A DNA stretch of 61,635 nucleotides, filler included, from Dirinaria sp. TL-2023a (taxonomy: Eukaryota), in NCBI GenBank assembly GCA_051941275.1. It is 19 parts of 19 records of this genome, joined end to end, with 100 filler letters (N's around TTAATTAATTAA, not from the genome) between each part and the next. Parts side by side here need not be neighbours in the genome. Positions count along the whole stretch, not along the records: positions 3,294 to 6,483 come from JAVEBF010002099.1; 18 more parts are not named here. One strand, 5' to 3'. A program made the translations under genes and the position numbers. This document shows positions 1-42,302 of this stretch, piece after piece; position 1 is the first letter of the stretch; each line of letters begins with the position of its first letter. Below the pieces are notes generated by a model. It searched no databases and was not told where the DNA came from. It saw only the letters and a program-made list of their open reading frames with translations.

Positions 1-139
1 CTTAAACTCATAGAGTTCTCGCATGAAGGATTTTCTAGTACTACGAATAGATGAAACGACATGTAATATAAAGAAAGTAGACGCAGCGTTAGCGCAGCGT
101 CGACACAAGTACATAGATCTCGCATAGGTCCCTAGTGAG

Positions 140-660
140 TGTTGAATCGAGTAAGAATTAAAAAAAAAAAAAAATTCGTTTTTGATTTTCTTTCGTAATG
201 AATCATGTATACGTCGTCGTAATAAATCGATCAATATAAATTTAAATATTTTGTTTTTTTTTTCGATGAGTCACACATTTTTTTTGTTACATTTGATCGC
301 TGTTAATTCAGAATGTCTCGATTGTTTTTTTTGATGATTCATTGTAATTCGAATATCGTGTGTTTGAAAACTCAGTTTTCGTATTTTTTTTTGAGAATGT
401 ATCTCGTTCGAAACGTATATAATGCACGTTAAACGATAATTAACATTCTCATAACGTTGTCTCCTGAGTAATTTCATGTCGTTAATAATTTCGTGAATTA
501 TATCGTTTATTATTTCATCGCATTTTCGCTATCGATGTATTTAACAATAATGAGTACAATAAAATCGATAATCGTATCAATTTTTTATCGTTGCGTTTTC
601 TCGATTCAACATTAATATATTTGTACGTTTCAAAATTTTTCGTTCTCGAGTTATGTAACA
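140..660. mobile_element. AT-rich, CC/GG-depleted repeat relic (RIP-like mutated, family unidentifiable)
   Basis: Almost no CC/GG but many CG, TC and GA dinucleotides. Ends at TGTAACA (654-660), where composition switches abruptly. Confidence 0.55.
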
Positions 661-664
661 GTGA

Positions 665-988
665 TACCTGATACATTGATATATATTAACCAATGCAGAC
701 TAGCGTCGCTTGGCAGCCGAGGGTGCCCAGGGGCAATCCTTCGGGGTCTGAAGTATGGCTAGCGCCGCCTAGAAGCCAGCGTCGAAAGACTGAATCTCGA
801 GACTGACTAGAAGTCAGTGAGCAGTTGACGCTTATAGAGCATTGTGCCTACGAGCGCTCGTGATCCGCCAGCGCGGGGCTCGTCATGATGGGGCAATGTT
901 AACGCTCGCGGTTAAGTATAGGGGACCACCCACCTTTTCGGAGGGGGTCCTTAGTAATTAGTTCTAGCAGGAACTACAGTATCAGGTA
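665..988. mobile_element. Candidate small insertion (MITE or solo-LTR-like) bounded by a 10-bp inverted repeat
   Basis: TACCTGATAC (665-674) and GTATCAGGTA (979-988) are perfect reverse complements. The interior is GC-richer and keeps CC/GG. Confidence 0.3.
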
Positions 989-1001
989 GCCATATAATCT
1001 A

Positions 1002-1950
1002 TTACACTGCCACGTCTTTCACACAAGTACTGCGTCGACGGGTAACCGGCGCATACGACCTTACAGTGACTCTTGCTCTCTGCCAAAGCTCCTTGATATA
1101 AGGTACCTGCGCAGCGATATCAATACCACTTGCAAACATTAACACGCTCCCAAAGTCGCTCAGATTCTCTCCTTTGCCATACGGGCTATCGACCCACGTA
1201 CACAGAGCTGAGGCATTTAGGTGTCTCAGCAATCTGCGTGTGAAGCCGTTTTTAGGTTTTATAAGGATATATATCTTTCCGTTTCGATCATACGCATCGG
1301 CGTCCCACCAAGTTATCATGAAAGAATGACTCTGAAAGAGAGACCAAAAACTGCAAGAGGGCACTCATATGTAGACATACTGCTCGGCTCGTACTTTTCA
1401 GAAGCGACGAACGTTGATCTCGACGCAGAATGCATCATTAGCGTTGTGACGTTGAATCACTCGTGCGGTCGCGTATGATTGACGTCAAGAAGACTGACGA
1501 AACAGAATTCGAGCGTATCTCAGTAGAGTGATGACGACGAAAATAGAAGCGGCGATAATGACATAAATTCTGGAATAATTGAAAACCACATTCAAATGAC
1601 GCCACAGCGCTATTACGAGCAATATCGCGAGCGCCGAATGCGATTTGATAAAGAATTCGTAAAGAGCGACTCGAGTTCATGTGAGAAGGAATATGGAACA
1701 CAGAGCTATGCTGGTCTAAACTATTATCAGTCGATTCCTGCTCGTGTATAACTTTCGACTTACCAAGAAACCATAGAAATGCAGTGAATTTTTGAGACTT
1801 AGAGCATTATGACAAACAAAGATGAGCACGTGAATCAATGTTTGAACGAAAGTCATAAACCCGACTGAACCGTGAAGCGCGCGAAAAATGTGTAACGACA
1901 GACCCAACAAATCCGCCGTAAAACTCAAGAATGATGCCTTCAGAATCGAT
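1002..1950 (-). pseudogene. Ferric reductase-like (FRE) gene, degenerate: transmembrane plus FAD/NAD-binding part
   Basis: Fragments SFTADLLGLSLHIFRALHGSVGFMTFVQTLIHVL (heme-ligand His helices), FQSHSFMITWW (HPF motif changed to HSF), IKPKNGFTRRL and WVDSPYG..VLMFASGIDIAAQVPYIKEL (DGPYG and GIGI motifs altered). Broken into short ORFs. Confidence 0.75.
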
Positions 1951-2203
1951 AATGAGAATGCAGTCCTCGGAAACCAAATTCGTTTCATATACTCTCTCCA
2001 TCTCGTTCATTCGAAGCTTGAGAAGTCGTGCCTCGAAGACGCTTCCGATGTCTCTGCTCAGCTCAGAGATACAAAACATCGGTGAAACTGCGTGTCTTGC
2101 AAATCACAGTCTTCGTCTCGATAGAGTTCTGAAATAAACGAACTTCTCTGTTAGTAGTCAGCAGTAAGCCGATCTGTTCATGAGGAAAACGCTTGCGCCC
2201 TAT

Positions 2204-2502
2204 AAATTGCCCTCTTTGTCCCGACGCACACGATAAATTTCGTGCGTCAAAATGTCAAAATTCGATTCGTTCAGCATATGCTGCTTCATATCAAGAACAA
2301 CGTGAAATGTTGCTTGATTAAGCTCTGGCGCCTGAAAAGGCTCAACGTGAGCAAAGTGTTGCCTTGTCTCAAGTTCGCCTTCGTATTCGCTTGTTGAACG
2401 TCCTGCTCATACAAGATAGGCTTTTATGGCGTCAGTATGCTGCTCTCAGCTGCGACCGTCCCCTTCGAACTCATTCACTCGAAGTCTTAGAATCACTCGT
2501 TT
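2204..2502 (-). pseudogene. Degenerate hypothetical gene upstream of the FRE relic
   Basis: Manual translation KRVILRLRVNEFEGDGRS*EQHTDAIKAYLV*AG..RQHFAHVEPFQAPELNQATFHVVLDMKQH..LTHEIYRVRRDKEGN. It is protein-like with two in-frame TGA and is followed by a CTAACAG intron end. Confidence 0.45.
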
Positions 2503-3193
2503 TGATCGATTTTCGAAACACATAGCTGTGGGGTTCATGGAGGTAGCGACAGTTGATGAGGTTGTCGACATTGCCATAGTTTTCAGTAGAGACACGAAGA
2601 TAGCATGTAAAATACTTTAGTTTTGTTGACACGCTAACTCATCTCGGCTGACGCTAAGCCTGCCATCTTGCGGTTAATCTTCCCCATAAATGGACCGTGT
2701 TTTTGCTTATCGTACTCGCCAAGTGTTATGGATTTTCACATGCTTCTTCCTGTGCTTCTGGGACTAGCATTTTGGTACTAGCTTTTATCTTTTACTTCTA
2801 TGGCTTTGCACCATGCACTTGGCGCATTTCCGCACCAATGCCGGTTTCAGATGCTTCCGGGCCTATGGCGCAAACCCCTGGGGTAGGTATGGTCTATTTA
2901 GCAGGCGATTGCACCCAGATTTCCCAGGGCATCACCATTATTATTAGCTATTTTGACTATCTACCTTATAGGTAATATCATTATATTTGGCCCACCATTT
3001 GGTCCATAACAACGAGTAAAAACGATCGTGAAGATAACAAATTCTCGCAAAAACGTGATAACACGTTCGCTGCAACTGAGAATAATGATAACTCCAAATC
3101 GTCAAACGAATCGAATCAGTCAGAGAATCACGCGAAACGTGACAAAAATGAACGAAACAACTTCTCTCGTGATCGCGAAAATCGCTCTCAGAA

Positions 3194-3293
3194 NNNNNNN
3201 NNNNNNNNNNNNNNNNNNNNNNNNNNNNNNNNNNNNNTTAATTAATTAANNNNNNNNNNNNNNNNNNNNNNNNNNNNNNNNNNNNNNNNNNNN
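3194..3293. other. Artificial contig spacer (first of 18): 44 N + TTAATTAATTAA + 44 N
   Basis: Identical 100-bp spacers start at 3194, 6484, 9763, 13036, 16305, 19571, 22825, 26078, 29328, 32578, 35824, 39068, 42303, 45535, 48765, 51987, 55204 and 58420. The 12-mer has stops in all six frames. Contig lengths never increase along the window. Confidence 0.99.
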
Positions 3294-6200
3294 GAACTAC
3301 GCAGACGATGCTTCGTGCGACGCTCCTGAGGCCAAATTCCTCTAAAGCCGTCACACAGATCATCGACGACGAGTAAATTTCAGAACGTTTCGATAATTGC
3401 TGAGAATAGCGTGATAGCTAAACTATTTAAGAAAAATCGATCGAATGACTCAATCGAGAGTCAAACGACATTGACGAGTTAGCGTAACGACGACGACGAC
3501 ATGAAAACAAAACAGAACGTGTCATTCACACAGAATATGAAACGTATCTTTATATAGAGCTTATTCACAGACGAGAAACTATAATGAAGACAAGCTCAGA
3601 GCTTCGAATATTACAGTACAACGTTCAAAAATCAAGAGACAAAGTGATGATAACTTTGTTACAGAAAGAAAAGATCAAGAAATATGATATATTAGTGATA
3701 CAGAAGTTCTGACGTCACAGCGAGAGCGCGAAGACGTACAACTCGCGAAGCTTCGACTTCACGCTAAAGAATAACGAAGAAAGAACGTGTTTCTATGTAA
3801 ACAAACGAATTGATAACAACAGTTGACATACAAAGTGACATTTCAGAGATGTGAGTACAATCACTCTGCATCTGCATTCTGAAGACAAAGAGAATGAGAA
3901 TACGACATTTCATATTCATGAAGTGTATAATTCGTCTTCGACGAATTACAATGAAGTAAACGACAAAGAAAATCTATCAGAAGTGAAGACAGCAATGCGC
4001 ATGCACGAAGAAAGTGTAGTAGTGAAAGACTTCAATTTACATCATTCATTATGAGTCGAATCATTCTATCTCAAACAACATTTTCTGATCGACGATTTAC
4101 TAAATATCATGCAGAACGTCGACGTCTCGCTGACGCTCTCAAAAGAAACTATAACGAGAAACTATCAGAGAACTCAGACTATCATAGATCTGAGCTTCAC
4201 TACAGACAGCGTTGCTGAAAGATTAATATATTGCGAAGTAGATGAGAAGATGAAGAACGCATTCGATCATCTGTCAATACGAACGATTTTGAATCTTCGC
4301 ACACAGAAGAAATCACAACGTCATCTTCGTCGCAACTGAAAAAGAATGAATGTGAAAAAGTTTGACAATGTGCTTCAAAATCATCTGTCAGAATCATTGT
4401 CACAACAGTCGACAAATCGTCAACGAATCAATGAGTATATAATGAAGCTACTAAACGTTTTGAAAAAAGCAACAGAGACATTTACATCGTGAATCAAGTC
4501 GCACGAGATAGTCAAAGCAGCATGAACAAACGAGTGCACTCAAGCAGTGAAGAAAGCTAGACGTCTACGACGCGAATGTCGTATCTCGACAAACTAACAG
4601 ATGTATCAAAAAGTCTGCGATAGAAAAAAAAAGATATTGAGAAAGCATAAGCGAAACGAGTTTCGCACAATCATGAAAGTCTCGAAGACGACTAATAAAG
4701 ATCTCTTCAACAACGCTAAATGAGCGCGAAATGCGATAGCAAACACACTGACTCAATCGAATATTTCGTCACTGAATCAGAGCGAAGTCATCGTCATCAC
4801 GACGACTCAGAAAACGAAAGTCATGTTTCAGATTCATTTTTCACTCTCATCAGAAGCATCAATGAACGATATTGAAGATTTCATCTACTCGACATCTATC
4901 GAGAAAGATGATTCAGTCACAGAAACAGAGGTGAAGAAGACAATACACAAAACGATCTCTGATAAAGCTTCAGAAATCAATGAAGTCACGAACAGAGCAC
5001 TAAAACAGCTAACACGTATCGCTTTATCACAGATAACATCGCTGTTCGCGAAATGCATACAAGAGAGCGTTCAATCAGCACACTTCAAGAGAGTCGCTAT
5101 CATTGTATTGCGAGAATCGAGTAAAAAGAACTATACGAATTTCTCGACATATAGATCTATAACTTTTCTGAACACATTGAGCAAGACGCTGAAGTTTGTC
5201 ATTTCAGAACGCATGCGCTATGCTGTTAAGAAGTTTGACATGCTATCAAATACACAAATGAGAGCTAAAAAACAGCGATTCGTGAACACAGCACTTCAGC
5301 TCATAACAGAGAAGATGCATACGATATGAAGCGAAAACAAGAAGCGAATGACATCGTTACTGAGTTTGAACGTTTTTGAAGCGTTCAACAATGTATCACA
5401 TGTCAGACTGCTTCATAATATGCGCAAAAGAAGAATGTCGAAACGTTTACTGATCTGAGTGAAAAATTTTTTGAAGAAGCGTTGAATCACACTGACAATT
5501 GACGATTATACGCAATCGAAGCGCAGTGTGACGATGAAAATCTCTCAGAGATTCTCGTTTTCATCGATATTATATCTGTTCTATAACGCGAATTTACTCG
5601 AAGTATGCGATGATATACGATTTCGCACTAACGTTACAGAATTTATCGACGATGTCAACATATTAATTTATAGTGAGTCGACGAAACGCAATTGTCAAAT
5701 GCTAAACGAGATGTACAACAAATGCGAACAATGAGCGCAAAGATATGACTCGAAATTCGTCAAGCGAAAGCACGAGCTAATTCACTTCTCGAGAATCTCT
5801 AAAAGATTCAATATGAGCGTCAGCGTTATACTAAATGAACACGAGATAAACGTTAAATTCGATATCAGAGTGCGCGAAGTTCAGCTGAACTCAAAACTGC
5901 GATGAAAATCACATTTGCGTCAGATTGAGACAAAACTCGTCGTGAGACATAAGATTGCACAGATAATCACTGACTTTATATGAGACTCGACAATGACAGC
6001 AAGCAAGCGTATATACTTCGAAGTATCACGTTCGATGATTAGTCACGAGACAATCGTTTGATACACATCAACAGATATCAAAGATCACAGAAAAACGATT
6101 GATGCGAAACTTCGCTCTATTCAGAGCAGAGAACTTCGTCAGATCACAAACGTCTATAAAGCGACATCAACGAAAACATTGCAAATGAAAATCAACACGA

Positions 6201-6483
6201 CGTCTATTGACATTTATCTCAAAAAGTTGCTTCAGAGATCAATAATAAACATGAATGCAAAAGACTCGAGAAAAACGATGAAAACAGCGATGACACGCAT
6301 AAAACGCGATATACTTTTTAGAAAAAATCGTAAATCAAAACTCAAAACGACGTCACTCGAGTTTAAAAAAAATGAATGCGTCAAACATTGAGTGAAAAAT
6401 TTACGTCACGACGACAAATTTATATCGCGACATCATGAGCAAAGTTTTCGAAAATAATTATTCAGAATGAGACACTAGCAATA
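3294..6483 (+). mobile_element. Tad1-like LINE retrotransposon: ORF2 (APE endonuclease + reverse transcriptase) from ATG 3584, inactivated by hypermutation
   Basis: ORF fragments at 3851, 4109, 4823, 5528 and 6179 are all in the frame of ATG 3584 and are separated mostly by TGA. APE motifs LRILQYNVQKS, KDFNLHH, IIDLSF, FDHLSI. RT motifs YRSITFLNTLSK, SQRFSFSSILYLFY (from QGSPLSP) and EFIDDVNIL. Confidence 0.95.
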
Positions 6484-7063
6484 NNNNNNNNNNNNNNNNN
6501 NNNNNNNNNNNNNNNNNNNNNNNNNNNTTAATTAATTAANNNNNNNNNNNNNNNNNNNNNNNNNNNNNNNNNNNNNNNNNNNNCACGTTGAAATCTCTTG
6601 ATTTGCTGCTCGGGGGGAGGGGGGGCGACTCTGCTTGAGGAAGTACTGGAAGGTGTGGCCACAACGTATTTGGCGCTCGCAACCTACCTCAGGTAAGTAA
6701 AAATCGATTCCGAGGTCGTGGGTCTATGCCCGATTGCGCTTGACGTGGAAGCGATATGGCTTTACGCAAAACCCTCATCACATTCTACAAATGATGTTCA
6801 CGTGTAATACACTATATTTGATGAAAAAGCTAATGATCTATTTGTGCAGTAATCCGATCTCATCTCTAGCGGGTTTCACTTGGACTGCGAGATTGCTCGA
6901 CAATACTCTCCAGGGTCAAATTACGCGAGTTCAACACAGATTCTTCCGGTGATATTTCTCCTCCAAAATTTGCAAAGTTTGGCTTTTTGATAGCCAAAAA
7001 CAAGCTGAGTATGTTCTAGATTCTTCTTGATAGTTTTGAGAACGGCATCCTTCATGAATGATC

Positions 7064-8643
7064 CTACACACCTTGAAATGCAGAATCCCTCGTCTCAACC
7101 TGCACAATGCTCCTTTGGACATCAATGCCGTTTTCAGGAGCTATCCTCTTCGGTATACCTTTCATCTCATAGCCACTTTCAAGATCCCGCATGGCTGAAC
7201 TATCAATATGTGCATTTCTGGAACTGGGGACCAGTCGAATGTCTTGGCTGGTATCAGCTGAGCTCTTACGTCTATGCCGTTTATTCTCGAGCCCGACATA
7301 TTGCCTCGAGTCCGGACTAGACGTCTTGCTGCGTATAGAGAGGAGGCTCTTTAAAGATCCCAGAAAAGAATTGACAGAAGTGTGGGAAATCAAGCCCCAA
7401 ATGGAGGGCAGATTGACAGCGATCAAGGCAAGCCCAGTCTCAAGCATCGAAAACCATACGGCCTGGGTGTCATTGACTATGAAGAATTAGAGCAAGAACA
7501 ACTTGTTGGGGACGAGACGCATACGTTGAATGTCTATCGCTGACTTATGTGAGGCGCCTATTAGTGTTTATCAGTGTACCGAAGCCGGATGTAGGATAGC
7601 GCATCGCGCACGCACCGCCCGCAAGCCTAACAAAGATGACGAGCCTTGCGATAGAGGCACCGAAACCACTACAGTAGCCAATCAGTATGTGGAACAAGCT
7701 GATTAGAAATCTTGAGTGTGGTCTGCTCACACTAACGCCAGCAAGAAGATTGCAGTTATGCTAATCTTACGAGTTATCGTTGTTTTCAATGACCAGATCT
7801 AGAGCGGTGATAGTCAGCGTCTGCCTTATTGATATCTGGGATGTGACGAGATACCGAAGGAACCGGCACGATCAGGACGAAGAAGTCGAGACTGAAGTCG
7901 GTAATAGCATAGGCCTCCTCAAACCGCTCTGTTATGATACAATACTTCGCAAAAGGAAAGTTTCCCTTCCAAGCAGCATTTGGATGGGAGCCACAAGCTG
8001 ACGCGTAGAACGTAATGAAGGTAATCGCCCAAGCCGCAATGAGGATGATAAGACTCCAGATTATCGAGTTGAGTTTTCCGGGTCGATGCGCACAGAATAC
8101 TCGCCTGAAGAATGATAGCGCAGCGATTTTGATAAGTGCTAAATCAAGAATTTGGAGTATCTGTAGGGCAAATATGAGCTAAATCGATCATTAGCCATAT
8201 GCGTATCCAGAACTGTGGCTACATGGTCCATTCAAACCTTTTCACATAAAATGGTCGATGGTGCAGTAAATGTCGGAGGACCTGGTGGAGAAGGATATCC
8301 GAAAGCTCGATTGGCGACCCCTGTTCAAGAATCGACTTTAGGTCTATATTGACTGTAATGCGCAAGCCAAGTATAGGTTTGATATCATACCAATGAGTGC
8401 GCTGATCGCCATGCCGATGAAAAGTACCTACCAGACCCGACTGGTGAGCAGGATGGTTGAAAAAATTGGAGCATAATTACATGCTTGGGCCCATACTAAT
8501 GCGGGTATTTGAGCCCAGTCATCAAACTCCAAGTTCACTTTAAGCTTCATTCTTGTGTAGAACCGCAAGCTAACAGCCACAATCCCTAGAGCCGGTAGCA
8601 CTGTACTACAAGCCCAGATACCTCCTGGTGAAGTCGTCGACAT
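7064..8643 (-). CDS. PTH11-like (fungal rhodopsin-domain) integral membrane protein, multi-exon
   Basis: N-terminus MSTTSPGGIWACSTVLPALGIVAVSLRFYTRMKLKVNLEFDDW and C-terminal WFSMLETGLALIAVNLPSIW are typical of the family. Several GT-AG introns. Confidence 0.85.
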
Positions 8644-38179: not shown

Positions 38180-38559
38180 TTCATGGTAGAGTATTGCTGG
38201 ATCGATTAATGAACGGTGCCGCGTGTGGCTCGAAGCAGTGGGAGGGCAAGCAGAAGAAAAGGAGCTGATAGTTGGGTAGCGATTGGCGGAGTTGATTGCG
38301 GCGCGGAGAATTGGATCGGCGGTCTTGCACGGCGAGCAACAACGATGATGATTATCCAAAGAGAGTCTCTCATTAACATGTACAAAGGCGTTCAAAATAT
38401 GTACAGAAGCATAAGCGCGGTCATTGTCTTCAGAACAAAGCAAGCAAGACCCGAAGATGGAGGTTGGACCGACGAGGCCGAGGGGAGTCTTGGTCTCTAA
38501 AGAAGACAGAAATCTGCTCCCCGCTCAGTCAGAAGCTCTCCCGAGATGACCGTTTTTAG

Positions 38560-39067
38560 CGAGTTGACTGAGTGAGCAGAGATGACGCGACATCTCATCA
38601 GAGTGATCAGCATCTCAGATCGAGTGAGCAAACTCATTCTTCATCTTTTCACTCACTCAATTCTCGAACGTTCGAGCAGCTCAAAAAACGCGCGCACATT
38701 CTCACGTTTTTTGACATAATCTCATTCATGTGATTTTGAAAATGAATGTCGTGATGAAAACAAAAGAGAAACGATGCGTCGTCAGTTCTCGTTTTTTCGA
38801 TTTCAAAATCGTCATCGTTCTTTTCATTTTACTCGTTCTCAACATTGTCATTTATTTTATACGATCATGAGTCGAAAAGAAATCTCGCTCGAGAACTTTT
38901 TGAAAAAAATCGAAATCAATAATTACAAACAAAACGCTCATCAGACGGAGAACAACATCAAAAACAATATCAAATATGTGAAAAAAAAACTCTAAAAAAT
39001 CAAAATTAAGCGTTGAAACGTTATGAAAAATAAGTGCAAACGTCAACTCAATTCGATCAAAACATTT
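38560..39067. mobile_element. CC/GG-depleted repeat relic upstream of the TBC gene
   Basis: Abrupt loss of CC/GG after about 38555, with rising AT content. Confidence 0.6.
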
Positions 39068-39167: not shown

Positions 39168-42100
39168 ATTTGATTTTGCAAACGATACGTCGCGACGTCT
39201 CGCTTGAGTCGTCGCTCGATCTCGAACTCATTTCTTTTTTGAATTTCGATGAATCAAAATCTCGAGAAACTCGTCAGCAGACGATTTGTTTTTCATTTCG
39301 TCTGCTGACGAGTTTTTTATTTTTTTTCTGTTTTCATTCCGTCTGCTGACGAAGTTTTTGTTTTTTTTTTTTTGTCTTTATTTCGTTTATTGACGAGTTT
39401 TCTGTCTTTTTTCTGTCTTTATTTCATCTGCTGACGAGTTTTTTGTCATTTTCTCTGCGTTGTTTCGTTCGCTGACCGATTTTTTTAAATGTCGTCGCTT
39501 TTATCGAAACAATTTCTGAAATCAATATCGTGTTTTTTACGACTTCTAATCTCACAAATAACTCGTTCAGCGATTTCGCTCGCGAGAGCAACGCATTTTT
39601 CGTTTCGTTCAATCAAACTCTACAGAAATCTCAGCTCAATATCGCGTTCTCGTTTTTCAACGAATCAGATTTCGACAAATTCGACAAACGAGATTCTCAT
39701 TTGACAAAATACGAACTCTGTATTACACTCGTCGCGAAATTGTCGACTCGAATCTTTTTTCTCACGTTTATTGTTGTACTTTCGATCGTTATTCAGATAC
39801 ACCGCTTCTCGTACTCAAACCGCACAGCATCGAGATCTTTAAAATAAGTATCGTTCGTGGAGGACGCTCAAGATTAATGCACATGAGTTTCAATCCTCAG
39901 CACTGTTGATGTCTCGCGCTCATTGTCATAATTTAGTTAGTCTTCGATAAGTTTCATGAAGAGATCAAGCAGCTCGAGAAAATTAACGCATTTTGAATTT
40001 ACGAATCCCATATTAGAGTTCAGATGACTTGCAAATTATGCCAAGTCATCAGAATCAAATGTGCTCATGTGTATCACGAGTGTCACATCTCTTTGCTCAC
40101 GAAAACTCTTAGAAAGCACACAGTTTATTTCAGACATTCTAATGTCGCCGCGTTCTGATTTGAAAAGTATTCAAAGGAGAGCACTCGGAATCCGCTTAGC
40201 TCTTTCAAGAGCAGAATTGTGTTTCAGAACAGGACTTCAGCTCTAAAACGCGCCTTCGATGGAACGTCGAGAAAAGATGAAAGAAGCTAATTACGAAAAA
40301 ATGTCGTTTCTCATAAGAAGCAACTGTTCCACACAAATTCGACAACGGAACTGAATGATAAAAGTTCAAAATTATAAAATTAAAATCAAGTTTCTTCACG
40401 CCTTGTCTGTACAATTTCGATTCATCAGTTTTGGGTGTTTGCTCATAATCTATCCTACTCAAGACTGTACTTCAAACACTTATTCAAACTGCGCTTTACC
40501 TCGACAACTTAGATATCTCAAAACTTATATAGTATCTTTTCAAAAAGTTATTCTAATAAAAACTACACTTTAAAAGTTCATTCAAAAAAAGACTTGATCA
40601 GTCGTGCTATCAAACTTCAAAGAATAATTCTTTCGTCGAAGAACAGTATCTCTACGTTGGAACATCTGAGAAGAAACATCTAAGAAAAGGCTCTGATGAG
40701 AGAGACGCTCGAAGTTTATAAATCGTAAACTGTTCGACTACGCTTCTACTAATATAGTCTTCGACTATCTGGTGATATGATCTGCAAACTCTCCTCGGTG
40801 CTCGAGCAATTTTTATTTTATGCTTCCTTTATCGTATCTAGGTGACTGATAAAATCGGATCTACAAGAAATATGACTTTCAGGGAGAAAAAGACATGGAA
40901 TTAGAATTTTAAAGCCCTTAGGGGCAGACCTTCAGCACCAGTGGGCCAAGAGGGAAGTTCTGCGATTACCGCGCTCAAGCTCGCAAGAATTTGGACGCTG
41001 AAGTTGGCTGCCACGATACTCATCTTGTGCATGTAAACTGTCTAAAGGATCAGTGAATAGCAAATTCCATCTCTATCCTCCGGGACTGCTGTCTAAATTA
41101 CAAACAAAAGAAAATCTGAAAAAACATAACACATTCATCCGCGAGGAAAGATCAAGGCCGGAAGATTACATTAGTATGCTGAGATCTCGATGTAGAAGGA
41201 TATTTATCCTGGCGATCACCTTCTAAAGTGACATTTAAAAACTTGAATCGAACGATGCGTATTGAAATTCTGCGATTCCAAAAAATTCGCTCATATCGAG
41301 AGGGAAATATACAGAGCCACTCTGGACGAAGAGTCTAGATTTATCAAAACGATGAGCGAAGGAAAATCATGATTTTTTCGTCAAATCGCATAATGTCGGA
41401 ATCGATGCTGCGATAAATCTCATTTTTTCAGTTTCGTCTCGCTTTATACGAGCAGCAGATTTATCGTCATTATGAATCAGACTGAGTTTCATTGTTAAAC
41501 AAAATAATCTGCTTCCGCGCTGGAAACAGGACGAGTTCTGGGTCGTTTGGCTCGCCCGCTTACTCACAGATTCGAAACATCCAGCTTTCGCTTTGGAAAA
41601 AAGCGTTTTGGCTTTCTTATCCAATCAAGATTTGAGGAATCGATGTCTCGGAGCTCTGACGAAATGATACTATTCTAATTTGTGTGGACGTTGAAAAGTT
41701 CTTCGTTTCTCGGGAAGCAATCATAAATTGCTAGCGAGCGTGCGAAATATTTGAAAAAAGAAAATGATATCACTTATGTTTTTTATTTAATGATCATCGA
41801 AATTGTTATGTTTGATATATGATATATCTCTGAATCTACTAATCTTTGATCCTTGCAGAAAAAAACAACTCCATCCCGCAAACGAGTTCGTCGATCTCGA
41901 CTGTTCGATTTGAAGATTCAATCTCTCATGTACAACTTACTCAATCAAGATAAATTGTTCGAGTTCAATTCTTCTTAAAATCGACTGTCTAACGAATTCG
42001 CGTAGCTGAACATGCGAATCGAAAAATGAAATTTGTAAACGATGATTTAACACGTTTTCATTATAAAGACGATAAATCGAACATGATGATTAATATCGAC

Positions 42101-42302
42101 TTGCAGACACATTTGAGAAACTTTTTTCGAATTGTCGCTAAATCAATCGTAGTGACGATTGAAGATTCAATCTTCAGTCCGTTCACTCGCATTCTCGAAT
42201 CAACAGAATTCGATAAAAATATTCACTAGAATGATAATCAAAAAGAAAAAGAGTTAACGTACGAACTAATACTGACTCTGATGTGTTCGCACAGTCTACG
42301 AG
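39168..42302. pseudogene. Partly hypermutated, formerly coding or repeat DNA; identity unresolved
   Basis: Both ends are nearly free of CC/GG while the middle (about 40700-41700) retains some. Only short, stop-ridden protein-like frames remain. Confidence 0.5.
39290..39450. repeat. Degenerate tandem repeat, unit about 40 bp, 4 copies (core TTTCGTCTGCTGACGAGTTTT)
   Basis: Core recurs at about 39296, 39337, 39381 and 39422. Confidence 0.75.

Follow-up and report, generated by a model that had tools for sequence, protein, structure and literature searches.

We analysed a window of 61,635 bases from the genome assembly of Dirinaria sp. TL-2023a. The window is composed of 19 unlinked contigs (3193 down to 3116 nucleotides (nt), ordered by length), joined by 18 N44-TTAATTAATTAA-N44 spacers (e.g., 3194-3293 and 6484-6583, plus 16 others); therefore, adjacency across the spacers is meaningless. 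The entire contig 2 (3294-6483), apart from its first 56 nt, is a copy of a non-long-terminal-repeat (non-LTR) retrotransposon, of the long interspersed nuclear element (LINE) type, in which the dinucleotides CC and GG are virtually absent. Further tracts poor in the same dinucleotides are located in contigs 1, 12 and 13, and the remaining contigs contain ordinary fungal genes. The state of these tracts is best described as hypermutation similar to repeat-induced point mutation (RIP) with a CpC target, although the CpA feature of RIP does not hold for them.

The assumption that the host is a fungus agrees with the matches of two genes, which indicate a lecanoromycete. The Npl4 gene (contig 14) is 82-84% identical to its counterparts in Usnea, Imshaugia, Pseudevernia, Alectoria and Stereocaulon, with one further match at 98%, and the RabGAP-TBC product (contig 12) matches, with 100% identity across 76% of the query, a protein labelled Dirinaria sp. 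TL-2023a by its source; Dirinaria is placed in the Caliciales, Lecanoromycetes. From assembly membership and the shared mutational signature, we infer that contig 2 belongs to the same fungus.

The retrotransposon copy in contig 2

The tract 3350-6483 comprises 3134 nt with a GC content of 0.37 (589 C and 581 G). Given this base composition, ~111 CC and ~108 GG are expected, versus 0 and 1 observed, and the counts are those that the initial annotation of this DNA had reported. The two CC/GG-free runs of the tract are 1582 and 1554 nt long; for the ordinary contigs 3-11 and 14-19, six such runs of over 70 nt are listed, with a maximum of 106 nt. The observed/expected ratio (O/E) is 1.16 for CA, 1.13 for TG and 1.76 for CG, all of which had been noticed as abundant, and 0.60 for TA; TC (1.61) and GA (1.47) are enriched, whereas CT (0.93) and AG (1.02) are not. 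The densities of CpA, CpG and CpT per kilobase (kb) are close to those of an intact relative; for example, CpG is found at ~61/kb in the tract versus 64/kb in L001, one of nine intact copies (L001-L009) for which DNA was available from metagenome contigs. In the 56 nt at the start of contig 2, there are 4 CC and 2 GG; therefore, the border of the tract is sharp.

The tract goes undetected by the classical RIP indices (TA/AT is 0.59, (CA+TG)/(AC+GT) is 1.13 and the composite index is -0.55), which is what had been anticipated for indices based on TpA and CpA. Ordinary genic contigs (nine, pooled) have O/E values of 1.02 for CC and 1.01 for GG. The equal depletion in genes that would have argued against a process directed at repeats is not observed in these contigs. 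The genes that had been used as a CC/GG-rich contrast are indeed normal in this respect; however, they are not neighbouring sequence, because the window is made of unlinked contigs and these genes are located on contigs unlinked to the tract.

The frame of open reading frame 2 (ORF2) of the element aligns over 97% of its length, with no frame change, to intact LINE ORF2 proteins of 1100-1360 residues with domains for endonuclease, RVT_1 and RNase H. This alignment, together with the endonuclease domain found in the copy itself, identifies the element as a non-LTR retrotransposon. RVT_1 was not detected by Pfam in the mutated copy, and no similarity to ORF1 was detected in the 235 nt upstream of ORF2. 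Because contig 2 ends inside the element, ORF2 lacks its final ~330 residues. The frame had been called intact, and this is correct in that there is no frameshift and no Pro, Gly or TGG codon in 3584-6481; nevertheless, the same frame contains 19 in-frame stop codons, namely 16 TGA (at Trp positions), two TAA and one TAG.

The replacements follow a simple pattern. Compared to P0003, an intact ORF2 homologue of 1292 residues, the 45 aligned Pro residues are represented by 38 Ser, 4 Leu, 2 Phe and 1 Thr, and the 61 aligned Gly residues are mostly replaced by Glu (18), Asp (13), Ser (9), Asn (6), Arg (4) and Lys (3), while 14 of the 15 Trp positions are TGA in the window copy. All five motif readings from which the direction of change had been deduced, KDFNLHHSL*, QKF*, QRFSFSS, EFIDD and FDHLS, are present.

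Direction and context of the substitutions

We applied a reversal test to 164 alignment columns in which the window element departs from a residue shared by three or more intact relatives, trying back-mutations of various types. Any T>C or A>G change restores the conserved state in 141 of the 164 columns. Undoing CC>TC and GG>GA only, that is, mutation of the 5' C of CC (T before C and A after G are reversed), restores 112. The corresponding numbers for other rules are 39 for the 3' C of CC, 9 for CpA, 12 for CpG and 25 for CpT. When the window element was threaded codon by codon onto L001 DNA, C to T changes were found at 58% of C before C and at 14-27% in other contexts; this threading is noisy because the families are only ~64% identical. 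A comparison to the majority consensus of eight intact metagenome copies yielded a moderate CpC/GpG enrichment that is not decisive (e.g., 36 of 73 C>T changes in L008 are at CpC).

A matched pair of copies was analysed in the same way. L001, the product of which shares 1269 of 1292 residues with P0003, represents the intact state, and P0002, a homologue of equal length with 0 Pro and 3 Gly, represents the hypermutated state. The P0002 protein was threaded without gaps onto the 1292 codons of L001, and sites were regarded as informative if their state could be read from the protein. There are 322 residue differences, and 318 of them are explained by C>T or G>A alone. The numbers of mutated and informative C sites are 119 and 130 for CpC, 4 and 214 for CpA, 6 and 163 for CpG, and 1 and 67 for CpT; for G sites, they are 199 and 234 for GpG, 3 and 195 for ApG, 12 and 144 for CpG, and 1 and 140 for TpG. 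Thus, 92% of CpC and 85% of GpG sites were converted, compared to ~2% for non-target transitions. For this pair from public data, the tabulation of C>T by 3' neighbour, a type of check suggested in the initial annotation, yields CpC as the dominant context, and not CpA or CpG. The direction inferred there, from the 5' C of CC to T on either strand, is supported by the window element and by the pair alike, and the statement that CpA is not the target holds for both of them.

The fine context of the target was also assessed in the pair. When [C]C is followed by A, G or T, 98 of 101, 96 of 97 and 93 of 101 sites, respectively, are mutated (~96% of isolated CC), and the 5' neighbour of the target C has no effect. 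For CCC, the first C is mutated in just 31 of 65 cases; this would be expected if the middle C were often mutated first, thereby protecting the first C. Eleven CpC targets are unmutated, and their 3' C is mutated in seven, unknown in four and certainly intact in none; the leftover CpC targets are thus explained by earlier loss of their neighbour. The ratio of on-target to off-target changes is 318:27 (11.8), and 18 of the 27 off-target changes are at CpG. Therefore, the process acts dinucleotide by dinucleotide on the sequence as it stands at the time, and with very high specificity. Almost no other differences separate L001 from P0002, so the change must have been fast relative to neutral divergence, which points to enzymatic hypermutation rather than slow decay.

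Taken together, these results identify the 5' C of CC as the target; the changes are transitions only, both strands are affected and the borders are sharp. In terms of the properties of RIP, restriction to C:G to T:A transitions is observed in the pair (318/322) and in the window element (141/164), and mutation of both strands is evident from CC and GG in the tract and from CpC and GpG in the pair. Conversely, preference for CpA, with TpA as the product and positive indices, is not observed.

Other tracts in the window and related public sequences

Table 1. Features of contig 2 and of other contigs of the window (positions are those of the whole window).
Feature	Position	Strand	Details
Start of contig 2	3294-3349		56 nt, ordinary density (4 CC, 2 GG); flank or unmutated side of boundary
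CC/GG-free tract, contig 2	3350-6483	+	0 CC, 1 GG; hypermutated non-LTR retrotransposon copy running off the contig end
ORF2 frame, 966 codons	3584-6481	+	19 stops, no frameshift versus intact relatives
Endonuclease domain of ORF2	3911-4279	+	Pfam Exo_endo_phos_2, residues 110-232, E 4.3e-10
Sole remaining GG of the tract	4930-4931	+	Composition count
Start of contig 1: LINE 3' untranslated region (UTR) and poly(A), partly mutated	1-175	+	~84% identity over 82-174; poly(A) at ~159-175
CC/GG-poor tract past the poly(A)	176-667		29-667: GC 0.30, CpG O/E 2.9
Ferric-reductase-like pseudogene, contig 1	1005-1715	-	FAD_binding_8, E 3.6e-7 (six-frame Pfam scan)
CC/GG-free end of contig 1	3005-3193		Run-length scan
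CC/GG-free end of contig 12	38551-39067		1 GG in 517 nt
CC/GG-free start of contig 13	39168-39802		2 CC, 0 GG in 635 nt; partly depleted zone follows to ~41700
CC/GG-poor end of contig 13	41714-42302		5 CC, 0 GG in 589 nt

The further tracts of the window adjoin normal sequence, with partly depleted zones beside them (Table 1). High CpG (O/E 1.8-2.9) and low TpA are characteristic of 29-667, 3005-3193, 38551-39067, 39168-39802 and 41714-42302. The LINE end in contig 1 belongs to the same family as the metagenome loci L002-L004, L007 and L008, and 4 of 9 CC/GG targets are mutated in its 3' UTR piece, a small sample. The tract of contig 12 starts ~30 nt past the open frame of the ordinary RabGAP-TBC gene. 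A six-frame Pfam scan of contig 13 identified no domain; two tandem copies of a unit of ~83 nt (81% identity) are located at 39285-39452, inside its CC/GG-free tract.

The ferric-reductase-like pseudogene is partly mutated, with four TGA and six TGG at Trp positions and with 5 Pro and 6 Gly remaining; in the overlapping region ~1400-2800, CC/GG are at ~40% of expectation. Among 1.8 billion representatives, the pseudogene is most closely related to P0323 (69% identity), a sequence of 324 residues with 0 Pro and 1 Gly. In the comparison of these two sequences, CC (5/9) and GG (6/7) are the contexts with the highest values, with weak support, as 43 changes are unexplained. Ferric reductases are one of four auxiliary families of the Starship giant transposons, and the pseudogene may be Starship debris.

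Among the metagenome loci, L001 has a zone with 5 CC/GG in 2687 nt that holds an older, reversed LINE relic (a Pfam scan of 1-2687 gave a sub-threshold endonuclease match). The border of this depleted zone, at 2688, is no more than 5 nt away from the 5' truncation junction of the intact LINE (2683). In some of these loci, a second signature is superimposed: L001 1-2500 and L006 1-550 have also lost CpG (O/E 0.34-0.38) and are enriched in CA and TG, whereas in L009 1-1000 the loss of CC/GG is accompanied by a deficit of CA/TG and by a TA/AT of 1.16, giving it the appearance of classical RIP. Unlike L001, L006 and L009, the window tracts display loss of CpC alone. The presence of contigs of the CpC-only, CpC plus CpG, and CpC plus CpA types suggests several mutational specificities in related fungi; several mutators, or a switchable specificity step, may coexist.

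Some additional observations were made for the same loci. The L001 LINE copy, truncated at 2683, differs in this respect from full-length family members with ORF1. Upstream of ORF2, an ORF1 of ~550 residues with Cys/His-rich knuckles is present in L003, L005 and L007 (~1440-3000) and in L009 (1109-2770). The LINE copy of L009 is interrupted by a second retroelement with normal CC/GG (4272-6910, minus strand; RVT_1 at 6089-6910, E 7e-8), within which an ORF of 340 residues (4272-5291) looks by eye like a tyrosine recombinase and has no Pfam match. A DDE_1 transposase gene of ordinary composition (6371-7477, minus strand) is located just downstream of the LINE copy in L008. No conserved gene was found in the flanks of the metagenome LINE loci.

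The signature is also found in metagenome contigs from several other assemblies, and dozens of protein clusters that derive from NCBI, JGI, ENA and Logan show it as well. In a public protein collection, 40 of 68 LINE matches have less than 2% Pro+Gly and yet have 10-28 Trp; this fraction is biased upward because the search words were derived from a Pro/Gly-free query. For ferric reductase, 4 of the best 150 matches have less than 2% Pro+Gly. Proteins with so little Pro and Gly and with normal Trp are probably hypermutated relics in which TGA stops were read as Trp by the gene caller. One Pro/Gly-poor public protein carries the source name 'tellurite resistance protein'. Overall, the tracts are associated with transposon sequence, and the signature recurs in independent public assemblies.

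Origin of the hypermutation and comparison with known systems

The geometry of the changes (a 3'-neighbour rule, both strands, transitions, sharp borders and spill-over) is, in our reading, that of a RIP-like or DNA methyltransferase-like process, and not of an APOBEC-type one. A homology-triggered, RIP-type process with CpC specificity is, in our view, a fairly probable explanation. According to this model, the retrotransposon copy would have been inactivated by enzymatic C-to-T hypermutation on duplex DNA; the mutagenic step would need C directly 3' of the target, changing CpC to TpC and, on the other strand, GpG to GpA, and the process would have run until essentially no CC or GG remained, sparing CpA, CpG and CpT. 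The trigger would be sequence repetition, as in RIP, and the action would presumably take place before meiosis. The tract substrate is a multi-copy LINE family, and the border in L001 coincides with a transposon junction.

The specificity may reside in a methyltransferase-like enzyme of the RID/DIM-2 type, or in the deaminase step of a pathway of this type. In Neurospora, mutations that depend on RID are confined to the repeat, and those that depend on DIM-2 extend into adjoining single-copy DNA; both routes prefer CpA, although DIM-2 methylates all contexts, which the authors interpret as a sign that deamination is a separate step and has a specificity of its own (10.1101/115501). On the separate-deamination model, the specificity step of the lichen lineage would demand C instead of A. 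A stronger proposal is that Lecanoromycete fungi have a distinct mutator that acts on cytosines in duplex DNA and depends almost absolutely on a 3' C; it would be either separate from the CpA-reading RIP machinery or a re-targeted version of it. This proposal is tentative and in our estimate rather unlikely.

The likeness to RIP of Neurospora crassa includes C:G to T:A transitions only, on both strands and with specificity set by the base 3' of the target C, as well as stop-riddled transposon copies, sharp borders and partly affected neighbouring zones. The difference is in the target, CpC changed to TpC/GpA here versus CpA changed to TpA in Neurospora (10.1101/115501, PMC2621366); in addition, GC falls only to 37% here and the classical indices are negative. 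The specificity is far tighter in our case, with the ratio of 11.8 given above versus a CpA dominance of 2.13 in one S. nodorum family (PMC2621366).

The 3'-neighbour preference of repeat-associated mutation varies by lineage. The RIPCAL paper describes CpA as the common target, a combination of CpG and CpA for A. nidulans, CpG/TpCpG for Microbotryum and an accompanying CpT preference for Magnaporthe, and it defines a CpC index, with no CpC-dominant case in the sections on which we draw (PMC2621366). The tracts studied here are similar to the MATE element of Aspergillus nidulans and Ty1 of Microbotryum in that repeat-associated C-to-T changes occur outside of CpA (PMC2621366). However, in CpG/TpCpG-type hypermutation CpG is the main target, whereas it is spared in the window tract; CpG is a weak secondary target in the L001/P0002 pair, and CpG loss is confined to some older related tracts. 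Classical RIP in lichens (Cladonia rangiformis, Xanthoria and Endocarpon) shares with our case the broad host group, transposon-rich islands and sharp borders. Nevertheless, in the relevant sections of these papers RIP is defined by a low GC content (10-20% in Cladonia) or by the indices TA/AT and (CA+TG)/(AC+GT), and a CpC context is mentioned in none of the three (PMC12542154, 10.1101/2025.11.25.690456, PMC3897900); the window tracts would fail such definitions. The full-text literature, outside of supplements and most subscription journals, contains no report of CpC-dominant RIP that we could find.

Several observations weigh against a RIP-type process with CpC specificity. A survey of 1,239 genomes, published in 2025, concludes in the part relevant here that RIP-like defences share the CpA preference (PMC12543289), and the corresponding parts of two lichen-fungus papers report classical low-GC RIP and no CpC (Cladonia rangiformis, PMC12542154; Xanthoria, 10.1101/2025.11.25.690456). 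There is no second copy in the window: blastx found no other LINE ORF2, and blastn among the 19 contigs yielded low-complexity matches only. The hypermutated full-length twins P0002, P0195 and P0200 differ at only 3-6 residues and so represent one mutated locus, not independent events; intact family copies coexist with mutated ones in related metagenome contigs. The mycobiont origin of contig 2 is via assembly membership, as the taxonomic check covered contigs 12 and 14, and no DNA methyltransferase or deaminase gene is located within the window contigs.

We considered several alternatives to a homology-triggered process. Heterochromatic repeat islands might be methylated constitutively at CpC and lose the target by slow spontaneous deamination of 5-methylcytosine, with no homology trigger. 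The tracts are indeed islands at contig ends beside partly depleted zones, and the older tracts that have also lost CpG (L001 1-2500, L006 1-550) resemble methylation decay. However, only 4 of 322 changes in the matched pair are of other kinds despite nearly complete conversion of the targets, whereas slow decay should leave more; in L001, a saturated tract is immediately adjoined by an intact LINE, and the CpG density of the window tract is unchanged. We therefore regard slow decay as improbable. An artefact of sequencing or assembly may be suspected where a tract makes up a whole 3.2-kb contig of a fragmented, metagenome-derived assembly with short contigs. Yet the same signature is observed beside normal sequence in other contigs of this assembly, in other metagenome assemblies and in dozens of public protein clusters, and the changes make sense at the codon level (TGG>TGA, Pro>Ser), with CpA, CpG and CpT remaining intact; an artefact is thus hardly conceivable. 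Homopolymer-compressed assembly as a cause was ruled out because AA and TT are plentiful. UV (ultraviolet) damage was rejected by inference, as TC is enriched, not depleted, and the borders are sharp.

Editing restricted to retroelements was also considered, in which a single-strand deaminase would act on LINE RNA or first-strand complementary DNA (cDNA) during retrotransposition, so that copies would arrive dead. It is suggested by the LINE as the main substrate, by the sharp start of the mutated zone 235 nt upstream of ORF2 and by the CC context, which recalls APOBEC3G, another process with retroelement substrates and with Trp codons changed to stops. APOBEC3G acts on minus-strand cDNA, where it deaminates the 3' C of CC, causing GG>AG and TGG>TAG changes on the plus strand only. 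Conversely, in the window element the 5' C is hit (112 versus 39 of the 164 columns restored under the 5'-C and 3'-C rules), the stops are predominantly TGA (16 versus 1 TAG), and both strands are saturated, CC being as absent as GG. DNA other than LINE ORF2 is affected as well (176-667, contig ends and the ferric-reductase-like sequence), which is not decisive because these could be retrocopies. Such editing is very unlikely to account for the tracts.

RIP is a textbook case of fungal genome defence, and its choice of dinucleotide is without a molecular explanation. A lineage that reads CpC would, if confirmed, break the kingdom-wide generalisation of CpA preference that the relevant part of the 2025 survey puts forward (PMC12543289), and it would provide a natural contrast for finding the enzyme that determines specificity; comparison of CpC-type and CpA-type lineages could pinpoint the component that sets the dinucleotide choice of RIP, possibly a deaminase. 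A cytosine mutator that acts on duplex DNA with strict CC specificity would also be of interest to researchers studying DNA deaminases. It should be noted that an annotation artefact would be explained, since dozens of Pro/Gly-free public 'proteins' of 500-1300 residues appear to be relics of this kind. As GC content, TA/AT and the CpA composite index all miss the tracts, RIP-like activity would be under-counted in lichen fungi and in metagenomes.

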